A stretch of DNA of 64,000 nucleotides from Myxococcota bacterium (GCA_036788295.1 DAIQNR010000006.1:51523-115522), one strand, 5' to 3'; shown: positions 10,122 to 64,000, counted from the first letter of the stretch. A program made the numbers and translations. Notes: generated by a model from the letters alone, not told the origin.

Positions 10122-10144
10122 GAATGGGGAGGAGAGGACGAGAG

Positions 10145-45984: not shown

Positions 45985-46195
45985 GGCCTCGACGCGCCGG
46001 CGCCGGATTGTCGTCGGAGGGTCTATGGGTTCGCCTCGTTCAGCGTCCAGTTCCCAGTCGATAGTGACACGATAAACGCGCGGGTCTCCATCTACGAATA
46101 CGGGACGAGCAGGACGCTCGGGAGCAATGCGAGCGCTCGAGCGTCGTGACGCTCGAACTCTCTACCGGGACTCGGGAGTCTCAGCCAGGAACCTT

Positions 46196-47209
46196 CTACC
46201 TACGAGTCGAGCTTGCTCGACCAGCGACGCGGGCCTCGAGCGCGGCGGGTCCGGCGCTGCCGTCCACCGCGTCGCCGTTCACGAAGGCCGTGGGCGATTC
46301 GGCGGCGCCGAGCCGGCGGGCGGCCTCGACCCGGCGGGCCACTTCGCCGAGCGGCGCGATTTGAGTGAGGCCCAGTTGGTTCGCGATTCGGTCCACTTCG
46401 CTCGGATCGGCGACCGGAGCGTCGAGCAGAGCGGTCAGCAACTTCGGTTTCAGTCCCTTTCCTTCGGCGGCGACCGCCCACTGCGCGATGCGAAGACCAA
46501 CCTCGTCCCCGTGGCGGGGGATGGGCCGAACCGTCCACCGAACCTTCGGCTGGGCTCGGGCCCAATCGGCGAGGGCGCGGGTCTGGGGCTCGGCGAGCGA
46601 GCCATAGATGACGACGACAGGGCCGTTCTCCGGCCCGGCCGCCTCGCCGGCGGTGAGCGGGATCGCGACCCGAGGGCGCGCTGGCGGAGGGTGGTCGATC
46701 CGAATGTCGGCCTGCTCCCGAAGGCTCCGGATGAAAGACAGCTCCGCTTCGAGGCGGGCCCGCTCCGAGAGGTACATCTCGACCCGAGCTCGGTCCTCTT
46801 CGCCAAGCCCTCGGTCCGCGAGGTAGGCTTCGACCTCGGCCCGGTCCGCCCGCCTCGGCGGCGCCTTTCTTCCCAGCAGCGCCTCGGCCGTGGTCCCGGT
46901 CTCGGCGGCGGCGCGGCGAAGGAGGCGCTCGTCGATTCGCCGCTCGAGCTCCTGCCGCTCGAGGATGTGCAGGTCCACCTGCCGCCGGAAGACCTCCATC
47001 GCGATCTCGGCGTGGACCTCGGACCGAAGGATCGGCGCTCCGTCCACCACGGCGAGCGCTGGATCTTCCACAGCCTTCCCGCACCCGAAGGAGAACACGA
47101 GCACCGCAGGCGACCAGGCGAGAGCCGGACCCATCGAGCAGAGCCGGGAGACGAGGCGAAGCACCGCCCGGACTGTTGCGGCCTTTGCGGGCCGCGGTCG
47201 ACCGGTCAT
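46196..47209 (-). CDS. DsbA-like thioredoxin-fold lipoprotein lacking the CxxC active site
   Basis: 337 aa from ATG 47209 (MTGRPRPAK...VLVFSFGCG lipobox). N-terminal coiled-coil/SurA-like region, then a DsbA-like fold in which the expected C-P-x-C position reads VVVIYGSLAEPQ, with no cysteines. Confidence 0.5.
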   Translation of the reverse strand: MTGRPRPAKAATVRAVLRLVSRLCSMGPALAWSPAVLVFSFGCGKAVEDPALAVVDGAPILRSEVHAEIAMEVFRRQVDLHILERQELERRIDERLLRRAAAETGTTAEALLGRKAPPRRADRAEVEAYLADRGLGEEDRARVEMYLSERARLEAELSFIRSLREQADIRIDHPPPARPRVAIPLTAGEAAGPENGPVVVIYGSLAEPQTRALADWARAQPKVRWTVRPIPRHGDEVGLRIAQWAVAAEGKGLKPKLLTALLDAPVADPSEVDRIANQLGLTQIAPLGEVARRVEAARRLGAAESPTAFVNGDAVDGSAGPAALEARVAGRASSTRR

Positions 47210-47222
47210 GAGGCGGCCGCGC

Positions 47223-48845: not shown

Positions 48846-49025
48846 GAGTTCTCCCCTTGGAGGCTCGGATGAAAGGGGGACGGCCTCCAACCCGACAGAA
48901 TCGCCAAGCGGGCCCGCTGCGCAAGCCGCATTCCGCGACAATTGACCACGGAGCGCTGATCTTCGCACTCACGCCGCCCGACCGCCGCCGGCGGGCGCGG
49001 GTTTCTGCTCGGTCACCACTACGTG

Positions 49026-49218
49026 GGTCAGCGGGAGGCGGTCTCTTCGAGGCGGCTCCAGAAACGAGCCGTGAGTCGCGACCACGCGTGGGCCTCGGCC
49101 ACCTCCCGCCCCGAGGCCGCCTGGCTATCGGGCGTGTCGCCACGGAGGCCCTCGAGGAGCCGAGCGGCGAAGCACGCGTCGGTCTCGGCCCGCCGGTAGT
49201 GAACGCCGTCCTCGAGCG
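49026..49218. repeat. 193-bp direct repeat, copy 1 (duplicate of the 3' end of the GT4 gene); second copy at 50891-51083
   Basis: Copies are identical except for 2 substitutions, both synonymous in the GT4 reading frame. Copy 1 encodes an orphan fragment (track ORF 49028..49243) identical to the last 60 aa of the GT4 protein (...LEDGVHYRRAETDACFAARLLEGLRGDTPDSQAASGREVAEAHAWSRLTARFWSRLEETASR). Confidence 0.9.
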
Positions 49219-49243
49219 CGCCAGCGTCTTCTGAAATCGGCAC
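49028..49243 (-). pseudogene. Orphan C-terminal fragment of the GT4 glycosyltransferase (duplicated 3' end)
   Basis: 71-aa ORF whose last 60 aa equal the GT4 C-terminus. No glycosyltransferase N-terminal domain is attached. Confidence 0.7.
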
Positions 49244-49400
49244 CCCGACCTCGCTGAAGGCCTAACTCGAGTGATTCCCCGAGGGCTCTCAGGCCGCCGA
49301 GGCGAGCCGCGCTCTGGAAGAGCGCTCGACTTGAAGAAGCTTTGAAGTTCGTCCGGGCTCGCGTCATTCACCGGCGACTTTCAAGAAAGGTCACTCCATC

Positions 49401-50783
49401 ATGAACCAAACACGACATTCCCTCATGATCTAACTCGCCGGATCCCTGACCCTCGCGGCCTGCGGCGGCGACGCGGTGGAGCTCGGCTCGAGCTACCTTG
49501 CCTCCGCCGACATCCTCGCGAGCGCGGGCGGAGGCTTCGTGGTCAGCGAGTCCGAATCCCCCGAGTACGCCGGCGTGGGCATCGACGTCCCGGCCGGGGC
49601 CCTGGCTCAGGACGTGACCCTCACCGTCGCGCCGACCGCCGACCTCGCGACCGTCGAGGACGTCGAATGGGTGGGACCGGCGATGGACTTCGGTCCGGAC
49701 GGCCTCACCTTCTCGATGCCGGCGACGATCACCCTGTTGGTGAACCGATCGCTCGGCGACGATTCCCCGGTGGTCCGCGCCGTGAGCGCCGACGGCAGCT
49801 CGGAGTGGATTGAGACCGATGACATCCAGGTCAACCAGAATGGCACGTGGTCCTTTCCCGCGTCCCACTTCACCATCTTTCAGCCCGGGCGAAGGCCGCG
49901 TCGCCAGACGGCCGGGGAGAGCTTCTCGGATCTCGACTGCCAACCGGGCTTCATCTGCGCCGCGATCGGCCGCTGCATCGACGGCTCGGGCGACGACCTC
50001 TACGAGGTGGCCCAGGCGGCGGGGAACTTCAGCACCCTGTTGACGACGGTGGACAGCCTCCGGCTCGCGGGGCTCATCTCCGTACCCGGACCCTTCACCC
50101 TGTTCGCCCCGACCGACGCTGCCTTCGCGTCGCTGCCCGTCAACCTGAGCGTCGTGGACTCGGCGATCGTCGAGAACATCATCTTCAACCACATCGCGTT
50201 CGACGAATTCGACGCCGCTGCCCTCACCGCAGCCGCGGAGGTGACGACCATCGCAAAGGTCACCCACGCTTTCGGCGGCGGGACGGTGCGCAGCGCCCGG
50301 ATCGCGACCGCCGATGTCGCCGCCTCGAACGGGATCATCCACGTCCTCGACGACGTCATCGTCCCGCCAACCATTCTCGAGACGGTGGCCGCGCGCCGGT
50401 TCACCCAGCTCTCCGCCGCCCTCGCCGCCGCGTCGCCGGCCACCCGCCAGGCGCTCGACCCGGATACCCTCGGGGGCGCGGCGCCGGTCACCCTGTTCGC
50501 GCCGCTCGACTCCGCCTTCGAGGCCGCGAATCTCGCTGGAGAGAACCTGGACGCGGTCCTCGCGACCCACGTGGTGGCCGGGCAGATCACTTCCGGCGAT
50601 CTCACTCCGGGTCGGGTCTTCACGACCCTGTCGGGGAGCCGTCTCACGGTGGGGACCGAAGGCCGGCCTGCGTCGCTGACCGACGAGCGCGGGAACACCT
50701 TCAGTGTGATCTTCTCGGATACGCGGACCCTGACCGGCGTCCTTCACGTCATCGACGGGGTGCTCCTCCCCGCGCGACCCTGA
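49401..50783 (+). pseudogene. Fasciclin (2x FAS1 domain) lipoprotein gene with an in-frame TAA at codon 11 inside the signal peptide
   Basis: ATG 49401 gives MNQTRHSLMI-TAA(49431)-LAGSLTLAACGGDAVELGSS... in the same frame as the 435-aa FAS1 ORF. The only start downstream of the stop is GTG 49476, which lacks a signal peptide. FAS1 signatures FTLFAPTDAAFASLP and NGIIHVLDDVIVP, VTLFAPLDSAF and GVLHVIDGVLLP. Confidence 0.6.
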
Positions 50784-50890
50784 GCGCGGCGTCGGGCTGG
50801 TCGTCGCCCCTGCGCAGGCCATCCCGAGGACCGGGTTCGTCCCTCGCTTTCTCGGTAGGCTCGTCCTCGGCGAGATTCGACGCGCCGGGC

Positions 50891-51083
50891 GGTCAGCGGG
50901 AGGCGGTCTCTTCGAGCCGGCTCCAGAAACGAGCCGTGAGTCGCGACCACGCGTGGGCCTCGGCCACCTCTCGCCCCGAGGCCGCCTGGCTATCGGGCGT
51001 GTCGCCACGGAGGCCCTCGAGGAGCCGAGCGGCGAAGCACGCGTCGGTCTCGGCCCGCCGGTAGTGAACGCCGTCCTCGAGCG
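50891..51083. repeat. 193-bp direct repeat, copy 2 (the native 3' end of the GT4 gene)
   Basis: See copy 1. Offset is 1865 bp. The two copies flank the FAS1 gene. Confidence 0.9.
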
Positions 51084-52068
51084 GAAACCCACGCACGCCC
51101 ACGGCCGTGGACACGAGCGGGATCCCGGCAGCGAGGGCCTCGACGACCTTCAAGGACGAGCCCGCGCCGTGGCTCAAGGGGTTTGCGAAGACGCGCGCCC
51201 GGCGAAGGTATGGCTCCACCGACGGTATGGTTCCCGTGACTTCGACGCGAGGTCCCCGGAGCGCCGCGACCCGAGCAGGTGGGTTTGCCCCACAGAGGAC
51301 GAGCGTGGCCTGGGGCGCTCGTGCCCACACTTGGGGCATGATCCGTTCAACGAGACGATGGGCCGCCGCCTGGTTCGGAGAATGGTCCATTCGGCCCACG
51401 AACAGGACCTCCGCGCCCCGTCGCGCCGACGGCAGCACGAGCGGGACGCGCTCGATCGCGACGCCATTTGGGATCACGTCTGGGCGCTCGGGTGAAAACG
51501 CCGCGATGTGGTCCGCGTCGGCCTCCGTCACGCAGACGATCCGGCTCGCCGCCCGCCACGCCTTCTGCTCGAAGGCGCGCATGGTCGCCACCGCCCATCG
51601 TCCCAGGGCGCCCACCGGTCCGCGAGCCTCGATCGACCCCGCCAGGAAGTCGCTCTCGACGTTGTGCTCATCGAGGAGCCAGGGGAGATCGGCTCCGAGA
51701 GCGGCCCGCGCGCCGTAGACATGCTCGACCCACACGAGGTCGAAACGGCGAGCACGGTGGGCCTCGGCGAAGGCGCGGAGGTTCGAGCGGGGGGTCCCCC
51801 GCGCCGCTCGGGTCGGCAGCCCCGGTTCGGGCAGGAAAAGATGGGGGTAGGGTGCCACCCGGTGCCAAGCGTACGTGGCAAGCAGCGGGTCGATTTCTGG
51901 GTTTCGCCGCTCCTTCCCGGAGGCCATCGTGAAAAGATGTAGCTCGGCCCGCTCGGCCACCCGCCGCGACAGTTCGAACATCCTCATCCTACCCCCGCTC
52001 GTCGGTGGGACCGGGAGGTAGGGGCAGAACAGCGCGATCCGGAGCACGGAAGCCTGGTCCCACGCCAT
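50893..52068 (-). CDS. GT4-family glycosyltransferase (GT-B fold)
   Basis: 391 aa from ATG 52068: MAWDQASVLRIALFCPYLPVPPTSGGRMRMFELSRRV... and C-terminal EX7E-type region. The 635-aa track ORF has a low-complexity upstream extension, judged spurious. Confidence 0.75.
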   Translation of the reverse strand: MAWDQASVLRIALFCPYLPVPPTSGGRMRMFELSRRVAERAELHLFTMASGKERRNPEIDPLLATYAWHRVAPYPHLFLPEPGLPTRAARGTPRSNLRAFAEAHRARRFDLVWVEHVYGARAALGADLPWLLDEHNVESDFLAGSIEARGPVGALGRWAVATMRAFEQKAWRAASRIVCVTEADADHIAAFSPERPDVIPNGVAIERVPLVLPSARRGAEVLFVGRMDHSPNQAAAHRLVERIMPQVWARAPQATLVLCGANPPARVAALRGPRVEVTGTIPSVEPYLRRARVFANPLSHGAGSSLKVVEALAAGIPLVSTAVGVRGFPLEDGVHYRRAETDACFAARLLEGLRGDTPDSQAASGREVAEAHAWSRLTARFWSRLEETASR

Positions 52069-52152
52069 GCGCGTCGGGTCACGTCGCTTCTCGGCCGCCG
52101 TCGAGACGCGAATCGCCCCGTCGGGTCGGCGCCGTGCTAGACGGTCGGGCCC

Positions 52153-53064
52153 GTGATCCCCCTCGTCGGGCATTTCGTTTGGATCGGGCCCCGGCTCGGC
52201 TTCGAGCACGTCCTCGCCGTCCGGTCGGCGGCTGCCCGGGGGGGGCTGGACCGGCTGGTGCTGCACCACGCCGACGCGCTCGACGCCGGGCCCGAGCTCG
52301 AGGCCATCCTCGCCGTCGAGACGCTCGAGCTTCGACGATTCGACCCCGAGACCCTCTTGCGAAAGCCCCTGATTGGGCTCTACCTCCGACTCGAGTCGGC
52401 TGCGGCTCGCGCCGACCTGGTCCGCGTCGCGATCTTGGCCGAGGAGGGCGGGGTGTACCTCGACGCGGACACGCTGACCGTGGCGAGTCTCGCCCCTCTG
52501 TGCGCCGGCGGCGGCGCGTTTGCGGGAGAGGAGCACATCATCTTTCCGGCCTCCGTCCGGGACAGCCGAAGCCCCGTCCGCTGGTCCCGAGCAATCGCGC
52601 AGGTTGGGCTGCGGACCGCGTGCCGCCTCGCGCCGGGGGGCTGGCGGGCGTTCCGGAGGGTCGAAGGCTGGTATCCTCGCGCGATGAACAACGCGGTCCT
52701 TGCTGGGGAGCCGGGACATCCCGTCCTCGACGCGCTGCTCGAGGCGATGGCCGGCCGGGCGGAGAAGTCGCGGCTGTCTCCCTACGCGCTCGGGCCGCAC
52801 CTCCTACAGTCTGGCGCCGCGCGCCTCGAGTCGATGGGGCTCGTCGTTCATCCTCCGCCTGTGTTCTATCCACTGGGCCCCCGGGTCGCGGAGCACTGGT
52901 TTCGGCCGGGCACGGCGCGCCACGTCGACCGGATGCTGGCCCCCGAGACCAGGGTGATTCATTGGTATGCGTCCAACCGGCTCACGGGGCCCATGAGCGC
53001 CGCGTGGGTTCGGGAGCGGGCCGAAGACCTCGCGTTCTGTCGGCTCGCGCGGCCTTTCGTCTGA
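52153..53064 (+). CDS. GT32-like glycosyltransferase (Gly_transf_sug, DXD motif)
   Basis: GTG start. VGHFVWIGPRLGF N-terminal motif and GGVYLDADT DXD motif, characteristic of Och1/capsular-polysaccharide-type GT32 enzymes. Confidence 0.6.
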   Translation: MIPLVGHFVWIGPRLGFEHVLAVRSAAARGGLDRLVLHHADALDAGPELEAILAVETLELRRFDPETLLRKPLIGLYLRLESAAARADLVRVAILAEEGGVYLDADTLTVASLAPLCAGGGAFAGEEHIIFPASVRDSRSPVRWSRAIAQVGLRTACRLAPGGWRAFRRVEGWYPRAMNNAVLAGEPGHPVLDALLEAMAGRAEKSRLSPYALGPHLLQSGAARLESMGLVVHPPPVFYPLGPRVAEHWFRPGTARHVDRMLAPETRVIHWYASNRLTGPMSAAWVRERAEDLAFCRLARPFV

Positions 53065-53118
53065 GAGCGCAGGTCGGCACCCCCCGGAAAGATCGTGCTA
53101 CGAGGAGCGCCAAAAAGC

Positions 53119-54177
53119 ATGTCCATCACCCTCGACGTCCTATCCCGGCCCGCGTTCAAGAACCGGCCGCTCAACCCCTACAACGCCCGCATCAACGAGC
53201 AGCTCGGAGGCTTTGGCGTGCGGGTCTTCGAGTATCGACCCCACCGGCCCCTCATCGAGCACTACGACGTGCTCCACGTGCATTGGCCCGAGACGACGTT
53301 CAACCACGACGTGCTCTCGGCGGCGGCGACGACAGAGTCGCTTCTCCTCGCGATGCGGGTGGCCCGGGCGAAGGGGACGAAGACCGTCTGGACGGCGCAC
53401 AATCTCTATGCTCAGGAGCACCGCTACCCGAAGTGGGAGGCCCACTTCTGGCGGCGATACATTCCCCAGGTCGATGGGGTCATCGCACTGACCGAGGACG
53501 GTCTCGAGCGCACACGAGAGACCTTCCCCGGCCTCGACACGCGGCCCGGGTGGGTGCTGCCTCACCCTCACTACCGCGGCGCCTACCCAGACACGATCTC
53601 CGACGAGGAGGCGCGGGCTCGCCTCTCGCTGCCTCCGAACGCCGAGGTCCTCGTCTTCTTCGGGCAGATCCTCGACTACAAGAACGTTCCCGCGCTCGTT
53701 CGCGCGTTTCGAACGATGTCCGGGGGCCCAAAGCCCCGCCACCTCGTGGTGGCAGGACGCCCACGGAGCCGCGAGCTCGAGCTCGCCGTCCGTCACGCCG
53801 CTCGGGGTGCGGATCGTGTGCATCTGCACCTGCGCTACGTCCCGGATTCGGACGTGCAGATGTTCCTGCGCGCCGCGGACCTCGTGGTGCTCCCGTACAA
53901 GGAGATCCTCAACTCGGGGAGCGCCGTGCTGGGGCTGTCGTTCGACAGGAGGGTCTGCATGCCCTGCACCGGGGCGGCCCCTTCGCTTCGCTCCGTGGTG
54001 GGAGAGCGCTGGATGCATCTGTACGACGAGCTGGGCCCCGAGTCCTTGGCTGCGGCGCTCGAGGGCGTAGGCGATCTGCCGCGGCGCACCGATGGGGCGC
54101 ATCTCGGCGGCATCTCGCCGATGGCGATAGCCGAGAGCACCGCCGCGATCTACCGGGAGCTGCTCGGCTCGAGATGA
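53119..54177 (+). CDS. GT1/GT4-like glycosyltransferase (GT-B C-terminal domain)
   Basis: 353 aa from ATG 53119 (AGGAG upstream). LVVAGRPRS...LRYVPDSDVQMFLRAADLVVLPYKEILNSGSAVLGLSF sugar-donor binding region. Confidence 0.6.
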   Translation: MSITLDVLSRPAFKNRPLNPYNARINEQLGGFGVRVFEYRPHRPLIEHYDVLHVHWPETTFNHDVLSAAATTESLLLAMRVARAKGTKTVWTAHNLYAQEHRYPKWEAHFWRRYIPQVDGVIALTEDGLERTRETFPGLDTRPGWVLPHPHYRGAYPDTISDEEARARLSLPPNAEVLVFFGQILDYKNVPALVRAFRTMSGGPKPRHLVVAGRPRSRELELAVRHAARGADRVHLHLRYVPDSDVQMFLRAADLVVLPYKEILNSGSAVLGLSFDRRVCMPCTGAAPSLRSVVGERWMHLYDELGPESLAAALEGVGDLPRRTDGAHLGGISPMAIAESTAAIYRELLGSR

Positions 54178-54306
54178 CCGGCGTTTCGACGAGGCAGGCC
54201 AGGCGATGGCCGCCATCCGCCTGCGCAGTCCACCGTTCGCCAAGACGCACCTCGGCATGCGCGGACCCGCTCGACAACCTCGCCCGAGCGTGCCATCCCC
54301 GGCCCC

Positions 54307-54933
54307 GTGCTCGGGTGGCTGAAACGCATCTGGCGCACGGCCCCGCCAGAACGGCACCTCGAGTTCCCGGAGTCGGCGATCGCGCACCGTCTCCTCGACG
54401 GGAAGAAGGGGATCGAGATCGGCGCGTCGGCGCACAACCCGTTTGGAATCCCAGGGACGATCTACGTAGACTTCACCGACTCCACCGAGACTTCGTTCAA
54501 GAAGTCGGAACTCGAGCTCGTCCAGCGGACGCAGCGGGTGGACGTGGTAGCCCTCGCTTGGTCGCTCCCTTTCGAGTCCGAGAGCCTCGATTTCGTGCTG
54601 AGCTCGCACGTCATCGAGCACTGCTTCGACATCATCGGCACGGTCGAGGAGTGGTTCCGGGTGCTCCGGCCCGGCGGGCTGGTGTTCATGGTCGTCCCCC
54701 ACATGGACCGAACCTTCGACAAGGACGAGGCTCCCACCCCCGTGAGCGAGCTCGTCGAACGGCACCAGGGACTGCGCGAGCCGACTCGGCCCCCGACCGA
54801 GCACCACTCGTTCTTCCGGACCGAAGACTTCCTCGCGCTGTGCGAGGACCAGCGATGGTCGATCGTCGAGCACCACGACGTGGACGACAAAGTGGGCAAT
54901 GGGTTCATCGTGGTCCTCCGACGAGAGGGATGA
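54307..54933 (+). CDS. Class I SAM-dependent methyltransferase (Methyltransf_11-like)
   Basis: LDGKKGIEIGASAHNPFG...ESLDFVLSSHVIEHCFD...LRPGGLVFMVVP. Confidence 0.65.
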   Translation: MLGWLKRIWRTAPPERHLEFPESAIAHRLLDGKKGIEIGASAHNPFGIPGTIYVDFTDSTETSFKKSELELVQRTQRVDVVALAWSLPFESESLDFVLSSHVIEHCFDIIGTVEEWFRVLRPGGLVFMVVPHMDRTFDKDEAPTPVSELVERHQGLREPTRPPTEHHSFFRTEDFLALCEDQRWSIVEHHDVDDKVGNGFIVVLRREG

Positions 54934-54936
54934 AGG

Positions 54937-56448
54937 TTGCCGGACGAGGCAGACGATGTACGCCGGCGCGGGCGCACGGGGATGGTCATTCTCGGGGCGC
55001 GCTCGGTCCTCAAGGAGGTCGCCGTCGCCGCTGGGAGCCTCGCGCTCGCTCGGCTGCTGGCCCCTGCAGACTTCGGGGTCTTCGCGATCGTCACCTTCGT
55101 CCTCACCCTGTTCCGGAGCGTCGGCGAGGTGGGTTTTGGCGCGGTGTTCATCCAGCGAGCCGAGCCCCCTACCCGGCGTGAGCTGAGCACTGTCTTCTGG
55201 TTTCAGCTCGGGCTGTCGCTGCTGCTGTTTGCGCTCGTCGTGCTCCTCTCCGAAGTCGTCTTCGAGGTCTGGCCGGAGCTTCCGCCGGACGCCCCCAGCC
55301 TCCTCCGAACGCTCGCGGTGTCGCTCGTCCTGGTGGTCCTCGGCGCCATTCCGGGGACACTGCTCGAGCGTGAGCTCCGCTACTTCCCCATCAGCGTCGT
55401 CGAGTTGGTCGGCTCGGTGACTTTCTATGGGACGGCGGTCGGGCTCGCGGCGGCCGGGCTCGGGACCCGCGCCTTCGTCCTTGCCGCGCTCGCTCAGAGC
55501 GTGACCTCGCTCATCGCGCTGTTCATGGCCCGGCCCTGGCTTCCGAGCTTCGTGTTCGATGTCGCAGCGCTGCGGAGGGTGCTTCCGTTCGGCCTGGTCT
55601 TTCAGGGAAAGCACTTCGTCGCCGTGCTCAACGACGCGGTCACCCCGGGTCTTGCCGGGGGCGTGCTCGGGCAGGCGGCGCTCGGCCTCAACAACTTCGC
55701 CCGGGGGACGGCGCTCATGCCGCTTCACGTCGTGGCGGTCATGGGCCGGGTGTCGTTCCCGTTGTTCAGCCGCCTCGCGAGCGACCGCCGGGCCCTCGCC
55801 GAAGAGCTCGACTTCATCTTCCGGCTCTGCGGCACCGCGAGCGTCGGGTTTTCGGTCTTGCTCGTTGGGCTCGGGCCGGAGCTGGTGAGCATCGTCTACC
55901 ACCCGAAGTGGCTTCCCGCGATGCCCGCCCTGTACATCTATTCGCTCGCCTTGAACCTCGGCTTCATGGCCCCGATCATGGCCGGCGCGTTCGAGGGCCT
56001 CGGACGACCGCAGGTCGTACTGCGCCTCGCCACCGCATGGACGGGTCTGAACTGGTTGATCTTGGTCGCTACGCTGTCTTTCGTCCCGACCCTCGAGGCC
56101 TTCGCGCTCGGCTACGTGGCCCACATGGTCATCGGGAACCTCGTGATGTCGCACCTTCTGAAGCGCGAGGTACCAGGCATCCACCCCATCGGGACCTGGC
56201 TGCGCGCCGCCGCGGTGGGGGTCGCCGTGGTCGTGGCGACCCGCGTGGGGGTCTCGCCCTTCGTCGATGGGTTTTGGTCGCTGGCCCTGGCGACCACGCT
56301 GGTCCTTGGCGGGTGGCTCGGGATCTCGGCGCTCGTCGATCCGGCGCTAAGCCGGTCGCTTCGCAGCTTCATCGAGCGGATCCGGCGGAGGCGCGCGCCC
56401 GTTCAGCGACGTGAATCAGCGGCCGACGTGAATCAGCGGCCGACGTGA
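54937..56448 (+). CDS. wzx: Polysaccharide/O-antigen flippase Wzx (MOP/MATE-like); start TTG 54937 or ATG 54982
   Basis: About 12-14 TM helices. N-terminal LALARLLAPADFGVFAIVTF motif typical of Wzx-family flippases. Confidence 0.7.
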   Translation: MPDEADDVRRRGRTGMVILGARSVLKEVAVAAGSLALARLLAPADFGVFAIVTFVLTLFRSVGEVGFGAVFIQRAEPPTRRELSTVFWFQLGLSLLLFALVVLLSEVVFEVWPELPPDAPSLLRTLAVSLVLVVLGAIPGTLLERELRYFPISVVELVGSVTFYGTAVGLAAAGLGTRAFVLAALAQSVTSLIALFMARPWLPSFVFDVAALRRVLPFGLVFQGKHFVAVLNDAVTPGLAGGVLGQAALGLNNFARGTALMPLHVVAVMGRVSFPLFSRLASDRRALAEELDFIFRLCGTASVGFSVLLVGLGPELVSIVYHPKWLPAMPALYIYSLALNLGFMAPIMAGAFEGLGRPQVVLRLATAWTGLNWLILVATLSFVPTLEAFALGYVAHMVIGNLVMSHLLKREVPGIHPIGTWLRAAAVGVAVVVATRVGVSPFVDGFWSLALATTLVLGGWLGISALVDPALSRSLRSFIERIRRRRAPVQRRESAADVNQRPT

Positions 56449-56452
56449 ATCA
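56410..56452. repeat. 17-bp tandem repeat (cgtgaatcagcggccga x 2.5) spanning the overlapping 3' ends of wzx and the RgpF-like gene
   Basis: Copies at 56410-56426 and 56427-56443, partial at 56444-56452. The unit length is not a multiple of 3, and it encodes the last residues of both convergent genes. Confidence 0.7.
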
Positions 56453-57179
56453 ACTCGACTGGGTAACCTCGGGCTTTCATCGCCGAAGCGACCCGGGAGC
56501 GGCTCACCCGTGCCGGGTTGTCTCGAAAGACCTCCACCTTGACCAGAGGCATCCCGAGCTCGAGCAGCACCAGCGGATGGAAGAGCGTGGGGTTGTTGAG
56601 GGTCCGCCGAAAAATCCGGGTCAGGGTTCTGGGCCGGAACAACAGGCGCTCTCGGTCGATGAAGGTGGCCGGGCGCAAGCCGTTTTCCTCGAGGAACGTG
56701 GTGAACCCGAGCTCGTAGCTCCGGATGAGCTGCCACTTGTTGCGGTACGGGAGCACGCTCGCGAAGAACGCTCGAAACGCCGGGTGGTCGAGCGCCGTCC
56801 GCCGGAGCACCAGAAAGTAGCTCTGGATGTGAAAGGCGTGCTCCCGGCTGGCCGTCATCCCCCAGAAGTCCGCCTCCCGCTCATCCATCGCCCGGAACGT
56901 GTCCGCGAGCGAGCCGACGGGCCCGTAAACGCTGGAGTTGGTGAGAATCAGCTCTTCTACGCCGTCGAGGTCGATCCGTTCGAGGGCGTGCTTCCACATC
57001 CCGAAGTCGTACCCCCGATTCTCGAGCAGGATCGGCGGGTCGCAGAGTCTCTCGAGCGGCGCGGGGTCGAGGTCAGGGGCGGTCGAGAGGAAGACGACCC
57101 GGTCCGCGATGGTCCGAAGGCCCTCGACGTAGTGCCGGATGTATGGCTTGACCTCGCCGTCGGCATCATAGTGAGCCAT
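56433..57179 (-). CDS. Rhamnan-synthesis protein F (RgpF)-like glycosyltransferase
   Basis: 248 aa from ATG 57179: MAHYDADGEVKPYIRHYVEGLRTIADRVVFLSTAP...ILLENRGYDFGMWKHAL... matches the Rhamnan_synth family. Overlaps the wzx 3' end by 16 nt. Confidence 0.65.
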   Translation of the reverse strand: MAHYDADGEVKPYIRHYVEGLRTIADRVVFLSTAPDLDPAPLERLCDPPILLENRGYDFGMWKHALERIDLDGVEELILTNSSVYGPVGSLADTFRAMDEREADFWGMTASREHAFHIQSYFLVLRRTALDHPAFRAFFASVLPYRNKWQLIRSYELGFTTFLEENGLRPATFIDRERLLFRPRTLTRIFRRTLNNPTLFHPLVLLELGMPLVKVEVFRDNPARVSRSRVASAMKARGYPVELIHVGR

Positions 57180-57262
57180 CAGCGCCAACCGAGACGTCAC
57201 GGCGCGGGTGGTACGAGCTTGGGCGCGCGCCGACAACCGTCCGGTTCGAAAAGAGCGCCTCG

Positions 57263-58657
57263 ATGAGCATAGACGTCTCGGACATCCTCCAGGAGCTCGC
57301 GGATCGCCCCCTGTCTGCCCTGTTGTGCCTGCCGCCGAGGCTGCTTCGCCTAGCGCGCGGGCCTCGGGCGCCCCGCGTTCCGCCCCTCCCCGACCCGCTG
57401 TCCGAGTTCTCGCTCGCGCTCCCCACCCCTCCGGAGACTCCGGACGTCAGCGTGGTCATACCCGTCTACGGGCAGGCGGCGGTGACCCTGCACTGCCTGC
57501 GGTCCATCGCGAAGGCGCGCGTGGGGCGGTCGCTCGAGGTCATCGTGGTGGACGACCGCTCACCCGACGTCACCCCGCAGCTGCTCGAGCGCGTCTCGGG
57601 GATAAGGGTCGCGCGCCCGGAAGAAAACGGAGGCTTCATTCGGGCCTGCCGACGTGGCGGGGACGCGGCTCGGGGCCGGTTCCTCGTCTTCTTGAACAAC
57701 GACACCGTCGTGACCGATGGCTGGCTCGATGCGCTCATCTGGACAATCGAGACCTTGCCCGGCGCGGGCATCGTCGGGGCCCGGCTCCTGTATCCGAACG
57801 GACAGGTCCAAGAGGTCGGCGGGATCGTGTTTCGAGACGGCAGCGGGGCCCACTTCCATCGGCGCTCCTTTCCCTCGGAAGCCTCCGACTTCGCCCGGGA
57901 GGTCGATTACGTGAGCGGGGCCTGCCTCGCCCTGCGGACGGAGGACTGGCGAGCCCTGGGGGGCTTCGACGAGCGGTACCTCCCCGCGTACTACGAGGAC
58001 ACCGACCTCTGCTTTCGGATGCGCGCGCTCGGAAAGAGCGTCTGGGTTCAGCCGGCGGCCGAGATCTTTCATCTGGAAGGGGCCACGCATGGCCGGGACC
58101 TGAACGTGGGGATCAAGCGCCACCAGGTGGACAACCACGAGCGGTTCTTCGAGCGGTGGCAAGAGACCTTGAAGGACCATCCCGTCCCCGGTCGAACCCA
58201 GCGAGAGAGCCCGTTTGCCGGCTCCCGCCGGCGCGGTGAGGAGTGCCTGGTCTTGGGCCTCGGCGGGGATGCGGACCTCGCACAGAGTGGCCGACGACCG
58301 GTCGAGGTCGCGCTCGCCATCGCCGCCGCCGGCTTTCACCCCGTGTTCTACGCCCCGAGGATGCCGCCTCGGCACCGCGCCGACCTCCAGCGGCTCGGGG
58401 TCGAGGTCCTCGGCCGCGCGAGCTTCGGGACGCTGCGGGCGCTGCTGCGGGCCCCCCGGTCGGGGCGTCTTCGCGCCGCGCTGCTCGCGGAGCCTCGGGT
58501 CGCGCTCATCGAGCTTGCGAGGCGGCGTCTCCCGCAGGCATCGCTCGTGGGGCTCGAGCCGGTTTCGAGCGAGGTCCGTCCCCTCCTCGACGCGATCTGC
58601 CCCGAGCCCCCGCGCGATCTCGGCCCCATGCTCCGCCGCGGACCTCGGACTTCATGA
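57263..58657 (+). CDS. GT2-family glycosyltransferase (GT-A fold)
   Basis: VSVVIPVYGQAAVTLHCLRSI...VIVVDDRSPD...FLNNDTVVTDGWLDAL...(DxD) and YYEDTDLCFRMRALG. Confidence 0.75.
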   Translation: MSIDVSDILQELADRPLSALLCLPPRLLRLARGPRAPRVPPLPDPLSEFSLALPTPPETPDVSVVIPVYGQAAVTLHCLRSIAKARVGRSLEVIVVDDRSPDVTPQLLERVSGIRVARPEENGGFIRACRRGGDAARGRFLVFLNNDTVVTDGWLDALIWTIETLPGAGIVGARLLYPNGQVQEVGGIVFRDGSGAHFHRRSFPSEASDFAREVDYVSGACLALRTEDWRALGGFDERYLPAYYEDTDLCFRMRALGKSVWVQPAAEIFHLEGATHGRDLNVGIKRHQVDNHERFFERWQETLKDHPVPGRTQRESPFAGSRRRGEECLVLGLGGDADLAQSGRRPVEVALAIAAAGFHPVFYAPRMPPRHRADLQRLGVEVLGRASFGTLRALLRAPRSGRLRAALLAEPRVALIELARRRLPQASLVGLEPVSSEVRPLLDAICPEPPRDLGPMLRRGPRTS

Positions 58658-58679: not shown

Positions 58680-59570
58680 GAGTGCCTGGGTGGGCACACG
58701 AGGGATCGGGCTCGCGGCGTCGGTTTGGCGCTCGCGCTCGTCGTTTCACCGAGCGACCAGAAGGCGTCGATGACCTCCGGCTCGCCGGACGCGGTCGCGG
58801 CGTGAGGTACCCATGGCCTCGAAAGTTATGAGCTTCCGGTGCTGAGGGCGTTGGAGTGCTCGAAGGCCACAGCGGCCCCTTCCGCGAGATGGGCGAGGTG
58901 GGGACCGTACCGGCAGGGTGTTGGACACGAAGAAGACGACCGGGTAACCCGGGAGACCCTCACGCCTCCTCGAATGAAGTCCCGCCGAGCCGAGCGCCGG
59001 TGGCCAGACTCCGAGCGCGATGCGTCTGCGGGCGCAGGCATCGCGTGCCCCCGTGTCGGCCCAGAACAGCGCCCGCATCGAGAGGCCCGGCAAGGGGAAC
59101 CGAAGCGAGGGCTGACGGGCGTGAGGGAGTCGGAGGGCCGCATACGAGCGATGACGTCGGGGAACGGGGGCGCCCGGACCCGTCCGAGCGAAGGCGGCCC
59201 GTGTTGATGTGAGCTTCAGGAGGGAACCAGGACCAAGGCCTCGAGCTTGGCTGTAATGTCACCGAAACTGCTGAAGGTAGTGGAAAGAGCGGGAACCGAA
59301 CCCAAAGGGAGGTTCCATACGCTCGCGCATCTCATCGATGTGCCAGCCCTCGAGCGCGCCTACCGGCGAGCCGGAAAGGATGCCGCGTTGGGCGTCGATG
59401 GCGTGACGAAGGATGCATACAGGGAGATGGCGAATTGGCTCGCCCGTAGAGAGCAGAGGCTCCTCCCGCCGGTTCAATCGGCGGCCGGCGGCGCGTACAC
59501 GAGCACCGCCCCGCGCCCCCGGCAGCTGGCGTCGACGTTGGTCCCGCACCGCTGCGGAGCCCCCACGTAG
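58680..59570 (+). mobile_element. 3'-truncated group II intron remnant: about 560 nt of structured 5' RNA plus the N-terminal 100 codons of an intron-encoded reverse transcriptase/maturase
   Basis: ORF from ATG 59256 (GGAGGGAACC RBS): MSPKLLKVVERAGTEPKGRFHTLAHLIDVPALERAYRRAGKDAALGVDGVTKDAYREMANWL..., i.e. the ...KG-GVDG-T...Y.E.L...L...L signature of group II intron RT domain 0. It terminates at 59570 with no RT fingers/palm, and its 3' end overlaps the FG-GAP gene. The 5' boundary was not identified. Confidence 0.45.
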
Positions 59571-60775
59571 AGGCGCCCGTCGACGTCGAAGGCGACGGAG
59601 GTCCCGAACTGCAGGCCCGGGACGAACCAGTCGGAGACGAGGACCAGATCCTCTTGGGTCGGGTCGAGCGGCGCCACCAGGTGGACCGTCCCGTTCCCGT
59701 AGCGCGTGTCGAGGCCGGGGTCGCTCCGGCTCCCCGCCGCCACCCAGCCCCCGCCGGCGTCGATCGCCTCCCCCCGTTTGCGTCCCTGAAGATCGGAGGG
59801 AGGGAGCAGGCTCTTCCAGCCCGAGGCCCCGGGCGCCCGCACGTAAACCTGCCCGTTGTACGGGCAGACCACCTCGTTGGGCGCACATGGGGCCCCGGTC
59901 ATCGCTGCCCTCGTGCCCCGGCACGTGCTCCCCTCCGGTAGACAAGCGTGGGCGAGGGGGGCGGAGACCACCGGCCGGTCGTCGAGCCAGGCGACCGCAG
60001 CTCCGAAGGCCTGGGCGTCGGGCCCGGGCGGGGCGAGCTCGCTGTCCAGGGCCCAGGCTTCTACCCGGTACCCGTAGAGGTAGGCGGCTCCGAGGCAGGA
60101 GGCGCGATCGCAAGGTCGAGCGCCGGCAAGGACCCCGTTCGAAGGGGCACCCACGAGCAGGCGCCCTCCGTTCAGCGCCACCGACCAGCCGAAACGGGCG
60201 CCAGCCCCCAGGCCAGGAGGGATCAGCTCCACCGGCGCCGAGGCGGCCCCGGTCCGATACAAGAGCACCCGCCCTCGGCGGGCGTCGTGGCCCGGGTCGC
60301 CGACCGCGAGCCAGCCGTCGTCCGCGTCCATCGAAAAACCGAGCTCCTCCCCCGCCTCCGGCGCTTCGAGGAAGCTGAGCCCCTCGAGCGTCGGGCTCAG
60401 GCGGGCGATGCGGCCCCCGAGCCCCAACCACACATCGGCCTCGGTCGCCGCCACGGACGCGATGCGGGGAGCGTAGGGGGAGGCGTCGAAGCTGGCGCGG
60501 AAGGTCCAGGCGGCGTCTCGATCGAACGCGAACAGCCGGGGGTCCGAGTCGTCGCCCTGCGCCACGTAGATCGAGCTCGGGGTGGTGGCGATCGCCTCGG
60601 CGAAGCGGCTCGTGTCCCCCGCCGACAGCTTGCCGGCTTCGGTCCAGGCGGTCACGCTGCCGGTGCGGCGGGTGTAGGGAGGTGCTGGCGCCGGCGGCGC
60701 GACGGTCAGCGGGTCGGGCTCACCGCAGGCGAGCGCACCGCCGAGCGCGATGAGCGCGGCCCGGGTGCTCGTCAT
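59474..60775 (-). CDS. FG-GAP repeat (integrin-alpha-type beta-propeller) lipoprotein, third of three tandem paralogs
   Basis: 433 aa from ATG 60775: MTSTRAALIALGGALACGEPDP lipobox. Repeats FGWSVALNGGRLLVGAP, FGAAVAWLDDRPVVSAP, FGTSVAFDVDGRLYVGAP...GAVLVY. ATGA overlap with the upstream paralog's stop. Confidence 0.75.
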   Translation of the reverse strand: MTSTRAALIALGGALACGEPDPLTVAPPAPAPPYTRRTGSVTAWTEAGKLSAGDTSRFAEAIATTPSSIYVAQGDDSDPRLFAFDRDAAWTFRASFDASPYAPRIASVAATEADVWLGLGGRIARLSPTLEGLSFLEAPEAGEELGFSMDADDGWLAVGDPGHDARRGRVLLYRTGAASAPVELIPPGLGAGARFGWSVALNGGRLLVGAPSNGVLAGARPCDRASCLGAAYLYGYRVEAWALDSELAPPGPDAQAFGAAVAWLDDRPVVSAPLAHACLPEGSTCRGTRAAMTGAPCAPNEVVCPYNGQVYVRAPGASGWKSLLPPSDLQGRKRGEAIDAGGGWVAAGSRSDPGLDTRYGNGTVHLVAPLDPTQEDLVLVSDWFVPGLQFGTSVAFDVDGRLYVGAPQRCGTNVDASCRGRGAVLVYAPPAAD

Positions 60776-62109
60776 CGAATCGCCCTCTCGTAGACGTAGA
60801 TCGCGCCGGAGCCGACGGCGCTCGTCCAGGCCGGTTGCGGGGGCACGATGAGCTCGCCGACCCCGACCCCGAGCGAGCCGTCCCCCGGAGCCCCGACCAC
60901 CAGCCCGTCGGGGGCCAGCGCGACCGCGTGGCCGAAGCTCGCCTTCGCCTGGGCGAGGACCCCCTTGAACACGACCGGCTCCGCGCCCGGTCGGGTGAGG
61001 TCGAAGGCGAAGACCGCGCCCGGGCCGCGCTCCTGGTTTCCGTTGCATGACGTGTCGATCCCCGCCAGCTCGGGTGCGCCGGGGTCGTCCCGGACGGTGC
61101 AGCTGCGCTCGTAGGGCGCTCCGACGATGAGGGCCTCGTCGTCGACGGCCACGCTGTAGCCGAACCGAGCGATGGCGCCCTCGAGGACCGAGTAGCGATC
61201 GAGCCGGGCGAGCGTCCCGAGGTCGTGGACCATGACCTCACCGCCGAGCGGGGCCCCGACGTAGAGGCGAGGGCCCCGGATCGCCACGCTGGTCCCGAAG
61301 CCCGTGCAGGGCGCTTCGGCGTCGAGCGGGTCCGCGGGTCGCCAGCCGTCCTGCTCGAGCCGGAAGACCTGCACGAGGCCCCGGGCGTCGGCGCAGTCTC
61401 GTTCGTCCTCCGGGTCCCCGACCACCAGAGTCGAGCCGTCCAGGTCCACCCGTCGCGAGCCCGACTGCAGCCGGCGAGAGGGCAGCGGCAGGGTCTGGGC
61501 GAGCGTGAAGCCGCCGGCCCCGTGTCGGTAGAGATGGACCGCGTCCTCGTCGACCGCGGCGAGCCAGGGGTCGTCCACGTCGAGGGCGAAGCCGAAGCTG
61601 CGGGCAGAGCTCGGGGACTCGAGGACCTGGACCACCCGGGCCTCCGGCTCGGTCTCGAAGACCACGACCTCACCTCGAAGGCCGCGGACCCGCGACCCAG
61701 CGAGCCATCGCCCGTCGCTCGCCAACGCGTGGCCGAGCTGGTCGGCGTCCGCGGTGTCCTCGGGTTGGAGGGGGATGAGCGCGGGGTCGGTAGGGACGGT
61801 CGGGTAGCGCGCGATCAGGCCGCGTCGGTCGCAATCCAACTGGACCGCCTCCGCGGGGCTGCACTGGTGCGAACGATGGGCGGCGACGAAGATCGCGCCC
61901 CCCGCACGCGCGAGGCTCCGGCCGAAGCCGGACTCCGGCTGCCGATCCCGCGGCTTGACGTAGTGCGCTAGGCGAAAGCCGGACTGCGTGGAGCCTGGGT
62001 CGCCCTGGCCGAGGGAGACCTCCTCGGGGCCGCAGCCCAGGAGCGCCCCGGCGAGAGCGCCGCCCAAGAGCGGCGCGCCGATCCGTCTTCGCACAGAAGC
62101 GCTCCTCAT
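60772..62109 (-). CDS. FG-GAP repeat lipoprotein, second of three tandem paralogs
   Basis: 445 aa from ATG 62109: MRSASVRRRIGAPLLGGALAGALLGCGPEE lipobox. FGFALDVDDPWLAAVDEDAVHLY, FGTSVAIRGPRLYVGAP, FGYSVAVDDEALIVGAP, FGHAVALAPDGLVVGAP. ATGA overlaps at both ends. Confidence 0.75.
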   Translation of the reverse strand: MRSASVRRRIGAPLLGGALAGALLGCGPEEVSLGQGDPGSTQSGFRLAHYVKPRDRQPESGFGRSLARAGGAIFVAAHRSHQCSPAEAVQLDCDRRGLIARYPTVPTDPALIPLQPEDTADADQLGHALASDGRWLAGSRVRGLRGEVVVFETEPEARVVQVLESPSSARSFGFALDVDDPWLAAVDEDAVHLYRHGAGGFTLAQTLPLPSRRLQSGSRRVDLDGSTLVVGDPEDERDCADARGLVQVFRLEQDGWRPADPLDAEAPCTGFGTSVAIRGPRLYVGAPLGGEVMVHDLGTLARLDRYSVLEGAIARFGYSVAVDDEALIVGAPYERSCTVRDDPGAPELAGIDTSCNGNQERGPGAVFAFDLTRPGAEPVVFKGVLAQAKASFGHAVALAPDGLVVGAPGDGSLGVGVGELIVPPQPAWTSAVGSGAIYVYERAIR

Positions 62110-63317
62110 GGGGCCCGCCCTCGAGTGTACTTCACGAACCCTCCCTCGGCGCCGGTCACGACTTGATCTTGGTCGGCCCCCAGGACCGCGCCGAAGCCGC
62201 TCCCGAGGCCCTCTTCTGGGCGGGCTCCGATCACGAGGTCGAGCTGCCAGACCCCATCGGCGTCCGGCGTGAACCGATACAGCGCGCCCCGGGCCTGAGC
62301 GTCGCAGACCTCCGCCCCGCTCCGGCCCCGCGCCGCCCCCGGGGTGCACGCGGCCGCGTCGGGGGCGCCCACCCAGATCTGGGCCCCGAAGAGCGCGACC
62401 GCCTGCCCGAAGCCGTCCTGCCGGGCGCCGCGTAAGACGAGCGGCGGCCGCTCCTCCCAGCGCTCGTCCGACCGACGAAACAGGCGGACCTGGCCGAGGG
62501 CGGTCCCGACCGCGAGCCAGCGGCGGTCGAGGGCCAGCGCCTGCGCGAAGCGGGTCCCTCCGATCCGCGCGTCGGGCAGCTCCCGCTCGAGCACCCAGCG
62601 CTGCTCCCGGAGGACGTACAGCTCGACCCGTCCGCTGTCGGGTCGGTCCACGCTGCCGGGACCGGGGGCCGGGGCGTCGCTCAGGGGGAGCCCCACCGCG
62701 AGCCGGGCTCCGCTCATCGCGAGCCGGATGGCGTCGAGCGAGCTCGCGCGATGACGGCTGAGGGTCTCCAGGGTCTCGGTGTGGGCCCACCCATCGCCCA
62801 CTTGGCGGTAGACGGCGACCGCCCCGCGACGGTCTCCGACCAAGCGCGCCGGGATCCCGACCGCGAGCCAACCTTGGTCCATGGCGAGCGCGGCGCCGAA
62901 GCCCTCGACATCGCCGTTGCGGAGGGACACGTGGGTCTGCCCTCCGTCGTGGGTCCGGTAGAGGTCGACCCGGTCGGCACCGGGCGAACCGACCGCAATC
63001 CACCCGTCCGCGATGGCGAGGCTGTCCCCGAAGGTGTCGGCCGCGCTCGAGGTCTCGAGGAGGATGTCCGGCCCGTCGGAGCGGCTCCGGAAGACGACCT
63101 GACGGGGGCAGGGCGCGGCCGGGCAGGCCGCGGCCCGGGTCCAAGCGAGGCTGTCCTCGTCGACCGCCAGCGCGACCGTGCGGGCCGGCGCGACCGGCAG
63201 CTCCCGGGCCGCCGGGATCCACGTCCCGGTCTCGTGGAAGCCTGGGGGGAGGGCCTGCTCGACGATGCAGCCGACGAGCAGGCCGGCCACGCCGACGTCA
63301 ACGTGGACCCGTCGCAT
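62106..63317 (-). CDS. FG-GAP repeat lipoprotein, first of three tandem paralogs
   Basis: 403 aa from ATG 63317: MRRVHVDVGVAGLLVGCIV lipobox. FGDSLAIADGWIAVGSPGADRVDLY, FGAALAMDQGWLAVGIP, FAQALALDRRWLAVGTA, FGQAVALFGAQIWVGAP. Confidence 0.75.
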   Translation of the reverse strand: MRRVHVDVGVAGLLVGCIVEQALPPGFHETGTWIPAARELPVAPARTVALAVDEDSLAWTRAAACPAAPCPRQVVFRSRSDGPDILLETSSAADTFGDSLAIADGWIAVGSPGADRVDLYRTHDGGQTHVSLRNGDVEGFGAALAMDQGWLAVGIPARLVGDRRGAVAVYRQVGDGWAHTETLETLSRHRASSLDAIRLAMSGARLAVGLPLSDAPAPGPGSVDRPDSGRVELYVLREQRWVLERELPDARIGGTRFAQALALDRRWLAVGTALGQVRLFRRSDERWEERPPLVLRGARQDGFGQAVALFGAQIWVGAPDAAACTPGAARGRSGAEVCDAQARGALYRFTPDADGVWQLDLVIGARPEEGLGSGFGAVLGADQDQVVTGAEGGFVKYTRGRAP

Positions 63318-63996
63318 GCCGCTCGGAGAGGGCCTCCACCTCACGGCGGAGGGCGCTCGTGGGGTGTCGGCGGACAAAGCGCGCTGCCGCGCTGCGAAGA
63401 TCCCGGTCCGCGCCCTCGGCCGCCAAAACGAGCAGGAGCACGTAGGCCCTCATGTCCGCGAGCTGACCGGCAGGAAAGCGCGCCGCGTGCTCCAAAGCGA
63501 GCCTGCGCGCCTCGCTCGGGTCCGCAGGCAGGGCGTCGCGCGCCCGGTGGAGGAGCTCGAGCTCGGCTGAGAAGGTCGTGCGCGGCGCGGCCGGACGGAC
63601 CGTCGCCGGGCGCCGCGGCTCAGCCTGCATCCAGCGCGGGCTCGGCCGCGGCGGGGAGGCGCCGAGCTCCGGCTCTGGTGGTGGGGCCGTCCGCTCGGGC
63701 TCAGGGCCGGTCGGCGCGGGTGAGACCGTCGGGGCGTCGGAGGGGGCGGTCGGGGGAGCGACCGTCCGCTCGGGCGACGCGGGAGAGGTCGCCTCGCCCG
63801 CGCCCGGTTCTGCGGGGCTCTGCGACGGAGACAGCGACGCCGCGAGCATGCCAAGCAGGAGGATCCCGCTCACCCCCGCGCTTGCGGTCCCGAGCAGGGA
63901 CAGCCGCGGCGGCGGCGGTCGAGCCGACAGCACCGCGACCTGCGCCCCCACTCTCGCCGCGACCTCGGGGGGGAGCCCTCGCGTGGGTTCGGCCAA
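63298..63996 (-). CDS. Single-pass membrane protein with Pro-rich periplasmic linker, probably partial (continues beyond the 3' window edge); anti-sigma-factor-like topology
   Basis: Frame is open to the window end. The track start is only a TTG. TM segment LSLLGTASAGVSGILLLGMLAASL, then a P/A/T-rich linker and a helical C-terminal domain. Overlaps the first FG-GAP gene start by 20 nt. Confidence 0.45.
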   Translation of the reverse strand: MAEPTRGLPPEVAARVGAQVAVLSARPPPPRLSLLGTASAGVSGILLLGMLAASLSPSQSPAEPGAGEATSPASPERTVAPPTAPSDAPTVSPAPTGPEPERTAPPPEPELGASPPRPSPRWMQAEPRRPATVRPAAPRTTFSAELELLHRARDALPADPSEARRLALEHAARFPAGQLADMRAYVLLLVLAAEGADRDLRSAAARFVRRHPTSALRREVEALSERHATGPR

Positions 63997-64000
63997 GTCG

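Follow-up and report, generated by a model that had tools for sequence, protein, structure and literature searches.

What is the role of three consecutive propeller genes that stand behind a membrane-protein gene at the end of a myxobacterial DNA segment? We addressed this question for a 64,000-nucleotide (nt) stretch of a Myxococcota bacterium (GCA_036788295.1 DAIQNR010000006.1:51523-115522), called here in its full length the window; the host lineage is probably an uncultured, Polyangia-type myxobacterium. A sequence-only reading had proposed three tandem FG-GAP beta-propeller lipoproteins, coupled by ATGA overlaps and preceded by a Pro-rich single-pass membrane protein of anti-sigma-like topology, and had considered such a triplication uncommon. 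We found that the window holds the 3' two-thirds of a tightly coupled six-gene operon, which encodes, in this order, a secreted protein, a sigma factor of the extracytoplasmic function (ECF) type, the membrane protein and the propellers A, B and C. The locus is a variation on a familiar type of envelope-signalling module.

All these genes lie on the minus strand according to both the list of open reading frames (ORFs) and a reading of the reverse complement. The G+C content is 74-77% across the propeller operon and 66-70% in the neighbouring genes. The Pro-rich single-pass membrane protein proved to be real, and its gene (63298..64000, stop at 63298) was cut by the window end, leaving the 3' 234 codons of a 250-codon gene inside. 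A TTG at 63996 was ruled out as its start, as the gene extends beyond the window; the true ATG lies 50 nt past base 64000, and the full protein has 250 amino acids (aa). Downstream of it are propeller genes A (62106..63317, 403 aa), B (60772..62109, 445 aa) and C (59474..60775, 433 aa). The proposed ATGA coupling was confirmed at the A/B (62106..62109) and B/C (60772..60775) junctions, but the membrane-protein gene and gene A share a 20-nt overlap (63298..63317) instead. ATGA overlaps are commonplace in operons, and 4-nt overlaps recurred here at the junctions of related loci and also in unrelated contexts.

The DNA past the window end was read from a 13.7-kb Logan contig (L001, run SRR3311151), a second assembly of this DNA that was found by exact-protein look-up. 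An ECF sigma gene beyond position 64000, on which the sequence-only reading had made its proposal depend, was indeed present. This gene (L001:8305-8883, just outside the window) is directly upstream of the membrane-protein gene with a 4-nt overlap, and its 192-aa product matched Sigma70_r2 (2.8e-9) and Sigma70_r4_2 (1.8e-14). With sigma-2 and sigma-4 domains only and a length within the range of ~170-220 aa, the protein qualifies as an ECF (group 4) sigma factor. The gene of a secreted 356-aa protein ends 14 nt before the sigma gene. The sigma factor and the membrane protein correspond by sequence to a conserved ECF sigma/anti-sigma gene pair, in which inhibition of the sigma factor is the presumed part.

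We searched for relatives of the operon with the membrane protein in an exhaustive HMMER search, which located a subfamily linked to FG-GAP genes, and looked up the neighbourhoods of four of the closest homologues (36-43% identity by phmmer). In each of the four, FG-GAP_2 genes follow the homologue immediately; the upstream protein comes first, then the sigma factor, the membrane protein and two or three FG-GAP_2 genes, and each locus stems from a separate sequencing run. Two propeller genes follow in P0051 (locus L137), P0052 (L139-L142) and P0066 (L143), and three in P0050 (ERR4592245), with lengths of 387, 458 and 438 aa and 4-nt overlaps throughout. Earlier word-indexed searches, for which B, the membrane protein or an A/B/C profile served as the query, had returned only self-matches and distant FG-GAP_2 proteins; the reading of the locus as an orphan without conservation was discarded as a false negative of the word prefilter, since the exhaustive search found true relatives. 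The gene order is thereby conserved across at least five uncultured myxobacterial lineages, judged from sequence comparison.

Identities across the four loci with DNA were 57-70% for the sigma factor, 32-40% for the upstream protein, 31-36% for the membrane protein and 28-35% for the propellers, and at every junction in them the neighbouring genes either overlapped by 1-20 nt or were separated by no more than 34 nt. The membrane-protein gene overlaps the first propeller gene of the conserved pair or its F1-like copy by 20 nt in the window, 4 nt in L137, 11 nt in L139, 20 nt in L143 and 4 nt in ERR4592245. A matrix of bit scores divided the propellers into an F1 class (window B, 137_F1, 139_F1 and 143_F1) and an F2 class (window C, 137_F2, 139_F2 and 143_F2). 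The orthologues of B in L137, L139 and L143 aligned over the full length with 28-30% identity, and those of C, likewise over the full length, with 29-35%. The best cross-lineage match of A was 139_F1, and A is an additional, divergent F1-like copy. The conserved unit is therefore a pair of distinct propellers, F1 and F2, with a third in two of the five lineages; ERR4592245 appears to share the three-propeller state, judged from the number, sizes and order of its genes. Joint conservation of sigma, membrane-protein and FG-GAP genes was thus borne out in four other lineages, with the pair and not the triplet as the constant element.

The core of the operon is much more widespread than the propellers. 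At E<=1e-3 the membrane-protein family comprised 980 cluster representatives, mostly of 200-280 aa, which aligned over nearly the full length. Sigma-seeded scans gave 49 loci in genome contigs, the source genome not being among the species representatives, and 80 in metagenome contigs (129 in all), with flanks of 7-8 kb where the contig allowed. The sigma relatives in these loci were 28-54% identical, mostly 38-50%, and the genome loci belonged nearly all to Polyangiaceae, Nannocystaceae, Sorangium, Labilithrix and the like. The family profile matched on the sigma strand in 93 of the 129 loci, and in most of the 49 genome loci the start of a partner gene of ~240-270 aa overlapped the sigma gene by 4 nt. 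The upstream protein had a homologue in 25 of the 129. The FG-GAP profile matched in none of them within the fetched flanks, while it did detect distant FG-GAP_2 genes in control loci. This absence delimits the subfamily and does not refute the conservation described above. The genes downstream of the core were variable, and the next gene was often on the opposite strand. Together, these comparisons indicate that the pair of sigma factor and membrane protein is widespread in Polyangia without propellers, accompanied by the upstream protein in about one-fifth of the sampled loci.

In two of these broader-family loci (L007:10231-13352 and L008:9581-12810), the genes ~0.3-0.9 kb past the membrane-protein gene encode first a DUF1592/DUF1588/DUF1595/DUF1585 protein and then one with DUF1552 (HXXSHH). 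The DUF1592-type and DUF1552 genes are a different recurrent cargo pair. Clusters of FG-GAP_2 genes also occurred in unrelated surroundings without a sigma factor, namely a pair with a 4-nt overlap (on a SRR8554898 contig) and a group of three (L055:7161-12245), whose three products have no clear lipobox. Multiplicity is therefore not unusual in itself, and tandem multiplication is a recurrent habit of the family; the claim that triplicated propellers are uncommon has to be weakened to this extent, as tandem FG-GAP_2 genes are not rare elsewhere.

The secreted protein at the head of the operon (L001:7220-8290) belongs to a family of ~320-356 aa with homologues in L137, L139, L143 and ~25 other loci, and it is present in all five FG-GAP-linked lineages. 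Its N-terminal domain contains four conserved Cys residues and the motif RLDW...CP.G...LGC, and is followed by a Pro-rich linker. The C-terminal domain is Gly/Ala-rich and ends in GLGVRF, which looks like an outer-membrane beta-signal; our impression from the sequence is that this domain is possibly barrel-like. The protein had no match in Pfam or in a profile search of the PDB. Pfam found no FecR domain in the membrane protein, and no TonB-dependent transducer was present among the called genes of the 13.7-kb contig or in L137, L139 and L143. By its gene content, the locus does not belong to the FecR/TonB type of cell-surface signalling.

Pairs of trypsin-like genes (PF00089/PF13365) flank the module in two loci, divergently upstream in L001 (4749-7100) and in L139 (5006-7252). 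Three of the four products have lipobox-like N-termini, and the identity between the loci is ~27%. No match to the pair was found in L137, L143 or the 129 broader-family loci. As a core component the trypsin-like lipoprotein pair was rejected, given this low identity and its occurrence in two of the four loci with DNA only; a function of these proteins as site-1 protease is possible, though unsupported.

In the alignments, members of the membrane-protein family begin with a conserved cytoplasmic N-terminus, which is short. A hydrophobic segment and a Pro-rich spacer come next, and a C-terminal domain of ~85 residues, also conserved, completes the four-part layout. The AlphaFold model of the window protein (120 sequences) had an overall predicted local distance difference test (pLDDT) score of 77. 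Two N-terminal helices were modelled at residues 11-19 and 28-43 with a pLDDT of ~90, and both are conserved in the family alignments. The predicted transmembrane segment (63829..63900, residues ~51-74, LSLLGTASAGVSGILLLGMLAASL) comes from a reading of the sequence and was modelled with low confidence; in relatives the hydrophobic stretch lies at residues 46-73. A Pro-rich periplasmic linker (63586..63828, residues ~75-155), disordered and of low pLDDT, connects it to a C-terminal five-helix tetratricopeptide repeat (TPR) domain of the YbgF/BamD type (63313..63576, residues 159-246), for which the pLDDT reached 96-98. The top Foldseek matches of this domain were the YbgF TPR (2xev) and BamD (3tgo/5waq), with weak E values of 0.03-0.3, and it could be superposed on BamD and YbgF at 2.1-3.6 Å over 85-92 aligned columns. 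The window protein itself had no Pfam match; some of its relatives matched YfiO (7 of 25) and TPR_6 (6 of 25), and the family profile matched BamD in the PDB (E 0.011). The window protein carries the TPR signature GQLADMRAY. The corresponding motif of the FG-GAP-linked subfamily is GQL[AVT]D[LM]R.[YF], which occurred, as such or as a close variant, in ~8 of the 150 best representatives, whereas the wider family has G.L..ERE.

The confident model thus backs an anti-sigma-like topology with a predicted membrane segment. The topology put forward by the sequence-only reading gained two helices, a Pro-rich linker and a TPR domain from the model, but the membrane segment is of low confidence and no recognised anti-sigma domain accompanies it. 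As there is no domain match, the assignment as an anti-sigma factor rests on topology and on the conserved coupling to the sigma gene. The suggestion of a cell-surface signalling or adhesion module, made in the sequence-only reading, is supported in part.

The three propeller genes were confirmed by Pfam, where FG-GAP_2 (PF14312) matched A with 33.1 bits (E 6.6e-8), B with 66.1 bits (3.1e-18) and C with 52.2 bits (6.8e-14), all above the gathering cut-off of 23 bits. NCBIfam gave no match for A, B or C. With pairwise identities of 25-32%, the three proteins are old paralogues. The AlphaFold model of B, built from a 39-sequence alignment, had a pLDDT of 79.9 and a predicted template modelling (TM) score (pTM) of 0.82, and showed an all-beta fold with ~27 strands. 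Seven blade motifs were recognised in B by a regular expression and by eye. In all of A, B and C, a combination of pattern matching and visual inspection found blade motifs that agree with a seven-bladed propeller; the test of the seven-bladed fold is thus based on the model for B and on the motifs for A and C. A Foldseek search of the PDB with the B model found integrin alpha propellers as the best matches (E ~1e-10, TM ~0.55, identity ~15%), and BamB chains were also on the list. The DxDxDG loops that bind Ca2+ were absent from all nine propellers of the four lineages.

The proposed lipid anchors were clear in B and C and less so in A. The N-terminal region of B ends in GALAGALLGC with the lipobox LLGC, and that of C in LGGALAC with the lipobox ALAC. 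The N-terminus of A is MRRVHVDVGVAGLLVGC, with LLVGC as the lipobox region. A PROSITE PS51257-type lipobox pattern fitted seven of the nine propellers across the lineages (B, C and five of six orthologues), whereas A and 137_F2 fitted it loosely only, in A because an Asp lies within the short hydrophobic region. B and C are therefore predicted lipoproteins, and A is a weaker, though still probable, candidate. The mature propellers contain several Cys residues at short distances from one another, which could form disulfides and would in that case agree with a location outside the cytoplasm.

How would these components work together? We hold, with about even confidence, that the propellers are a co-expressed output or partner of a sigma/anti-sigma-like pathway. 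The N-terminal helices of the membrane protein would hold the sigma factor at the inner membrane, and a cue from the envelope would free it once the TPR domain had sensed this cue by contact with other proteins. The freed sigma factor would then transcribe its own operon, and in this proposal the propellers would be made in fixed proportion to the sigma/anti-sigma pair. Anchored by lipid, they would serve as a heteromeric F1/F2(/A) binding platform in the envelope. We rated the propellers as likelier to be a subfamily-specific output or partner than the primary sensor, because over 100 related loci have a core that operates without propellers.

Several observations weigh against this proposal. 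No recognised anti-sigma domain was found in the membrane protein or its relatives with Pfam and NCBIfam. A class I domain (zf-HC2/RskA/RseA_N type) comprises four helices and ~80-90 aa, but only two helices precede the membrane segment here, and this N-terminus is shorter than such a domain. A test for enriched dyads ahead of the first gene in 15 loci, together with visual inspection of four orthologous upstream regions, revealed no convincing shared ECF-type -35/-10 motif, and a scan with the sigma-70 consensus identified no ECF-type promoter. Because such a promoter was not identified, we infer autoregulation and co-transcription from gene spacing only. The conserved tight overlap of the membrane-protein and F1 genes fits a stoichiometric complex, in which the propellers act as co-sensors, at least as well. 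The predicted lipid-anchored propellers may face either the periplasm or the cell surface. Finally, five lineages are known in all, and DNA was compared in four of them.

The overlap just mentioned leads to the alternative that survives best, which we regard as tentatively possible. Here the F1/F2(/A) propellers would be ligand-binding receptors that dock on the TPR domain and control the stability or conformation of the anti-sigma-like protein, in parallel to RseB on RseA and CnrX on CnrY, so that the operon would be an integrin-like device for outside-in signalling. The overlap between the membrane-protein and F1 genes is kept in every lineage, a sign that their products may be made in a constant ratio. 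The periplasmic part is a small TPR interaction domain without an evident ligand site, the FG-GAP-linked subfamily has a TPR signature of its own, and the propellers and the TPR protein have similar rates of evolution. The conserved overlap and the distinct signature, above all, keep this alternative alive. However, the core family functions without propellers in the 129 sampled loci, so a sensor partner must already exist there. Similar FG-GAP_2 propellers are also found in sigma-free contexts. A more specific version, in which the propellers form a heteromeric integrin-like receptor whose occupancy is signalled to the ECF sigma factor by way of the TPR domain in a minimal anti-sigma factor with two helices, seems unlikely to us. 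If true, such a receptor relay would be an undescribed, TonB-independent class of bacterial outside-in signalling at the cell surface.

It is quite improbable that the propeller genes are pure cargo, that is, lineage-specific genes of secreted proteins that landed behind the sigma pair without a functional tie, for example adhesins or matrix- or polysaccharide-binding proteins connected with the neighbouring Wzx/Wzy cluster. In the broader sigma family, the genes that follow downstream vary greatly, a polysaccharide biosynthesis cluster adjoins at 44.4-58.7 kb, and a truncated group II intron at the 3' boundary of the block hints at rearrangement. Myxobacterial genomes are also rich in tandem paralogues, which we counted in favour of the cargo explanation. 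Nevertheless, the same order is kept in five lineages with junctions that overlap or are at most 4 nt apart. Where DNA could be compared, the order persists although the propellers are only ~30% identical and the outer flanks differ, and the polysaccharide cluster is not conserved beside the module in L137, L139 and L143. It is just as improbable that the membrane protein is a periplasmic TPR scaffold instead of an anti-sigma factor, taking part in envelope assembly with the upstream protein and the propellers while the ECF sigma factor is regulated elsewhere and merely drives expression: no anti-sigma domain was detected, the closest structures of the C-terminal domain are envelope-assembly TPR proteins and with BamB an assembly machine is known that includes a propeller lipoprotein, but the 4-nt sigma/partner overlap, the short cytoplasmic N-terminus and the single hydrophobic segment kept in most loci are a classical ECF/anti-sigma signature, and the N-terminal helices are conserved and modelled at a pLDDT of ~90.

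The reading of the propellers as output or partner can be compared with known systems. The rpoE-rseA-rseB-rseC operon of E. coli shares the layout of an ECF sigma gene, a gene for a single-pass anti-sigma protein and genes for extracytoplasmic accessory proteins, and both loci would be read-outs of the envelope state, a role presumed for the present one. However, RseA has a class I anti-sigma domain, whereas the present protein combines a short two-helix N-terminus with a periplasmic TPR of the YbgF/BamD type. RseB is LolA-like in its fold and lacks a lipid anchor, as opposed to the FG-GAP_2 propeller lipoproteins found here, and Pfam gave no RseA or RseB match at the locus. In CnrYXH of Cupriavidus metallidurans, the cytoplasmic sigma-binding segment is very short, as is its presumed counterpart here, and sensing could likewise fall to a separate periplasmic partner encoded in the operon. 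CnrY is a short class II anti-sigma factor, and metals are sensed by CnrX, a small helical protein. The Cnr genes follow another order and belong to other families than those of the present locus, and no sequence relationship was detected. As in FecI-FecR-FecA, a single-pass anti-sigma protein may connect an ECF sigma factor with an outer-membrane or secreted protein; the present locus lacks a FecR domain and a called TonB-dependent transducer, and its upstream protein belongs to an uncharacterised family of ~350 aa.

Structural parallels exist for the individual parts as well. Integrin alpha subunits, the best structural match, also contain a seven-bladed FG-GAP-type propeller; in contrast, the present propellers lack the DxDxDG loops, stand alone on a lipid anchor and have no equivalent of the beta subunit. 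BamB, BamD and YbgF (CpoB) are likewise envelope proteins built on a propeller lipoprotein or a small TPR domain. However, BamB is an eight-bladed PQQ-type propeller, unlike the FG-GAP_2 proteins, and BamD and YbgF are not fused to a transmembrane or sigma-binding segment, unlike the membrane protein described here. Bap1 and RbmC of Vibrio cholerae are bacterial extracellular propellers of FG-GAP type that bind polysaccharide or surfaces, and a polysaccharide cluster adjoins the present locus. They are secreted, eight-bladed, multidomain FG-GAP/VCBS proteins and are neither lipoproteins nor linked to an ECF sigma factor.

Other features lie outside the operon. Convergent with gene C is a remnant of a group II intron at 58816-59465 (+). 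Rfam at gathering thresholds returned nothing across the whole window; the match to group-II-D1D4-6 at 58816-58919 was below the threshold but significant (32.6 bits, E 2.8e-7). An ORF fragment starts at 59247, and its first ~70 aa are 43% identical to the N-terminus of an LtrA-type reverse transcriptase/maturase. Nothing more of this enzyme is left, and the frame of the fragment runs into the 3' end of gene C. No match to domain V/VI of group II introns was found. A rearrangement seems to have left this remnant as a scar where the operon ends on its 3' side.

The Wzx/Wzy-type polysaccharide cluster extends over 44410-58657 with a G+C content of 66-70%. It includes a Wzy_C protein, GT4/GT1 glycosyltransferases, a methyltransferase, a Wzx-like flippase, an RgpF-like protein and a GT2 enzyme. 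Near it is a gene for a fasciclin protein with two FAS1 domains of the cell-adhesion type (49434-50783, +). A glutaminase gene (47223-48968, -) encodes a PF04960 domain (E 7e-111) with an N-terminal EF-hand_14 and C-terminal ankyrin repeats, which we take to be the architecture of the animal kidney-type enzyme; to our knowledge, this architecture is unusual in bacteria. Frame analysis also revealed two very long ORFs at 6030-14689 (+), with 1363 and 1593 codons from stop to stop and a third-position G+C of ~0.9.

ECF sigma/anti-sigma pairs are a major signalling device of bacteria, and for most ECF groups both input and output are unexplained. Full-text literature searches returned no paper linking FG-GAP proteins with ECF sigma factors and none assigning a function to PF14312. 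The main text of the ECF reclassification (Casas-Pastor 2021) does not mention a propeller or lipoprotein context. In the literature searched, we did not find a description of the present module, which combines a minimal anti-sigma-like family of Polyangia carrying a BamD/YbgF-type TPR domain with an upstream secreted protein and, in one subfamily, a pair of propellers. If the propellers are receptors, bacteria would have in this module a counterpart of integrin-type outside-in signalling. If they are outputs, it would provide the first regulatory context for FG-GAP_2 (PF14312), a widespread bacterial family without an assigned function.

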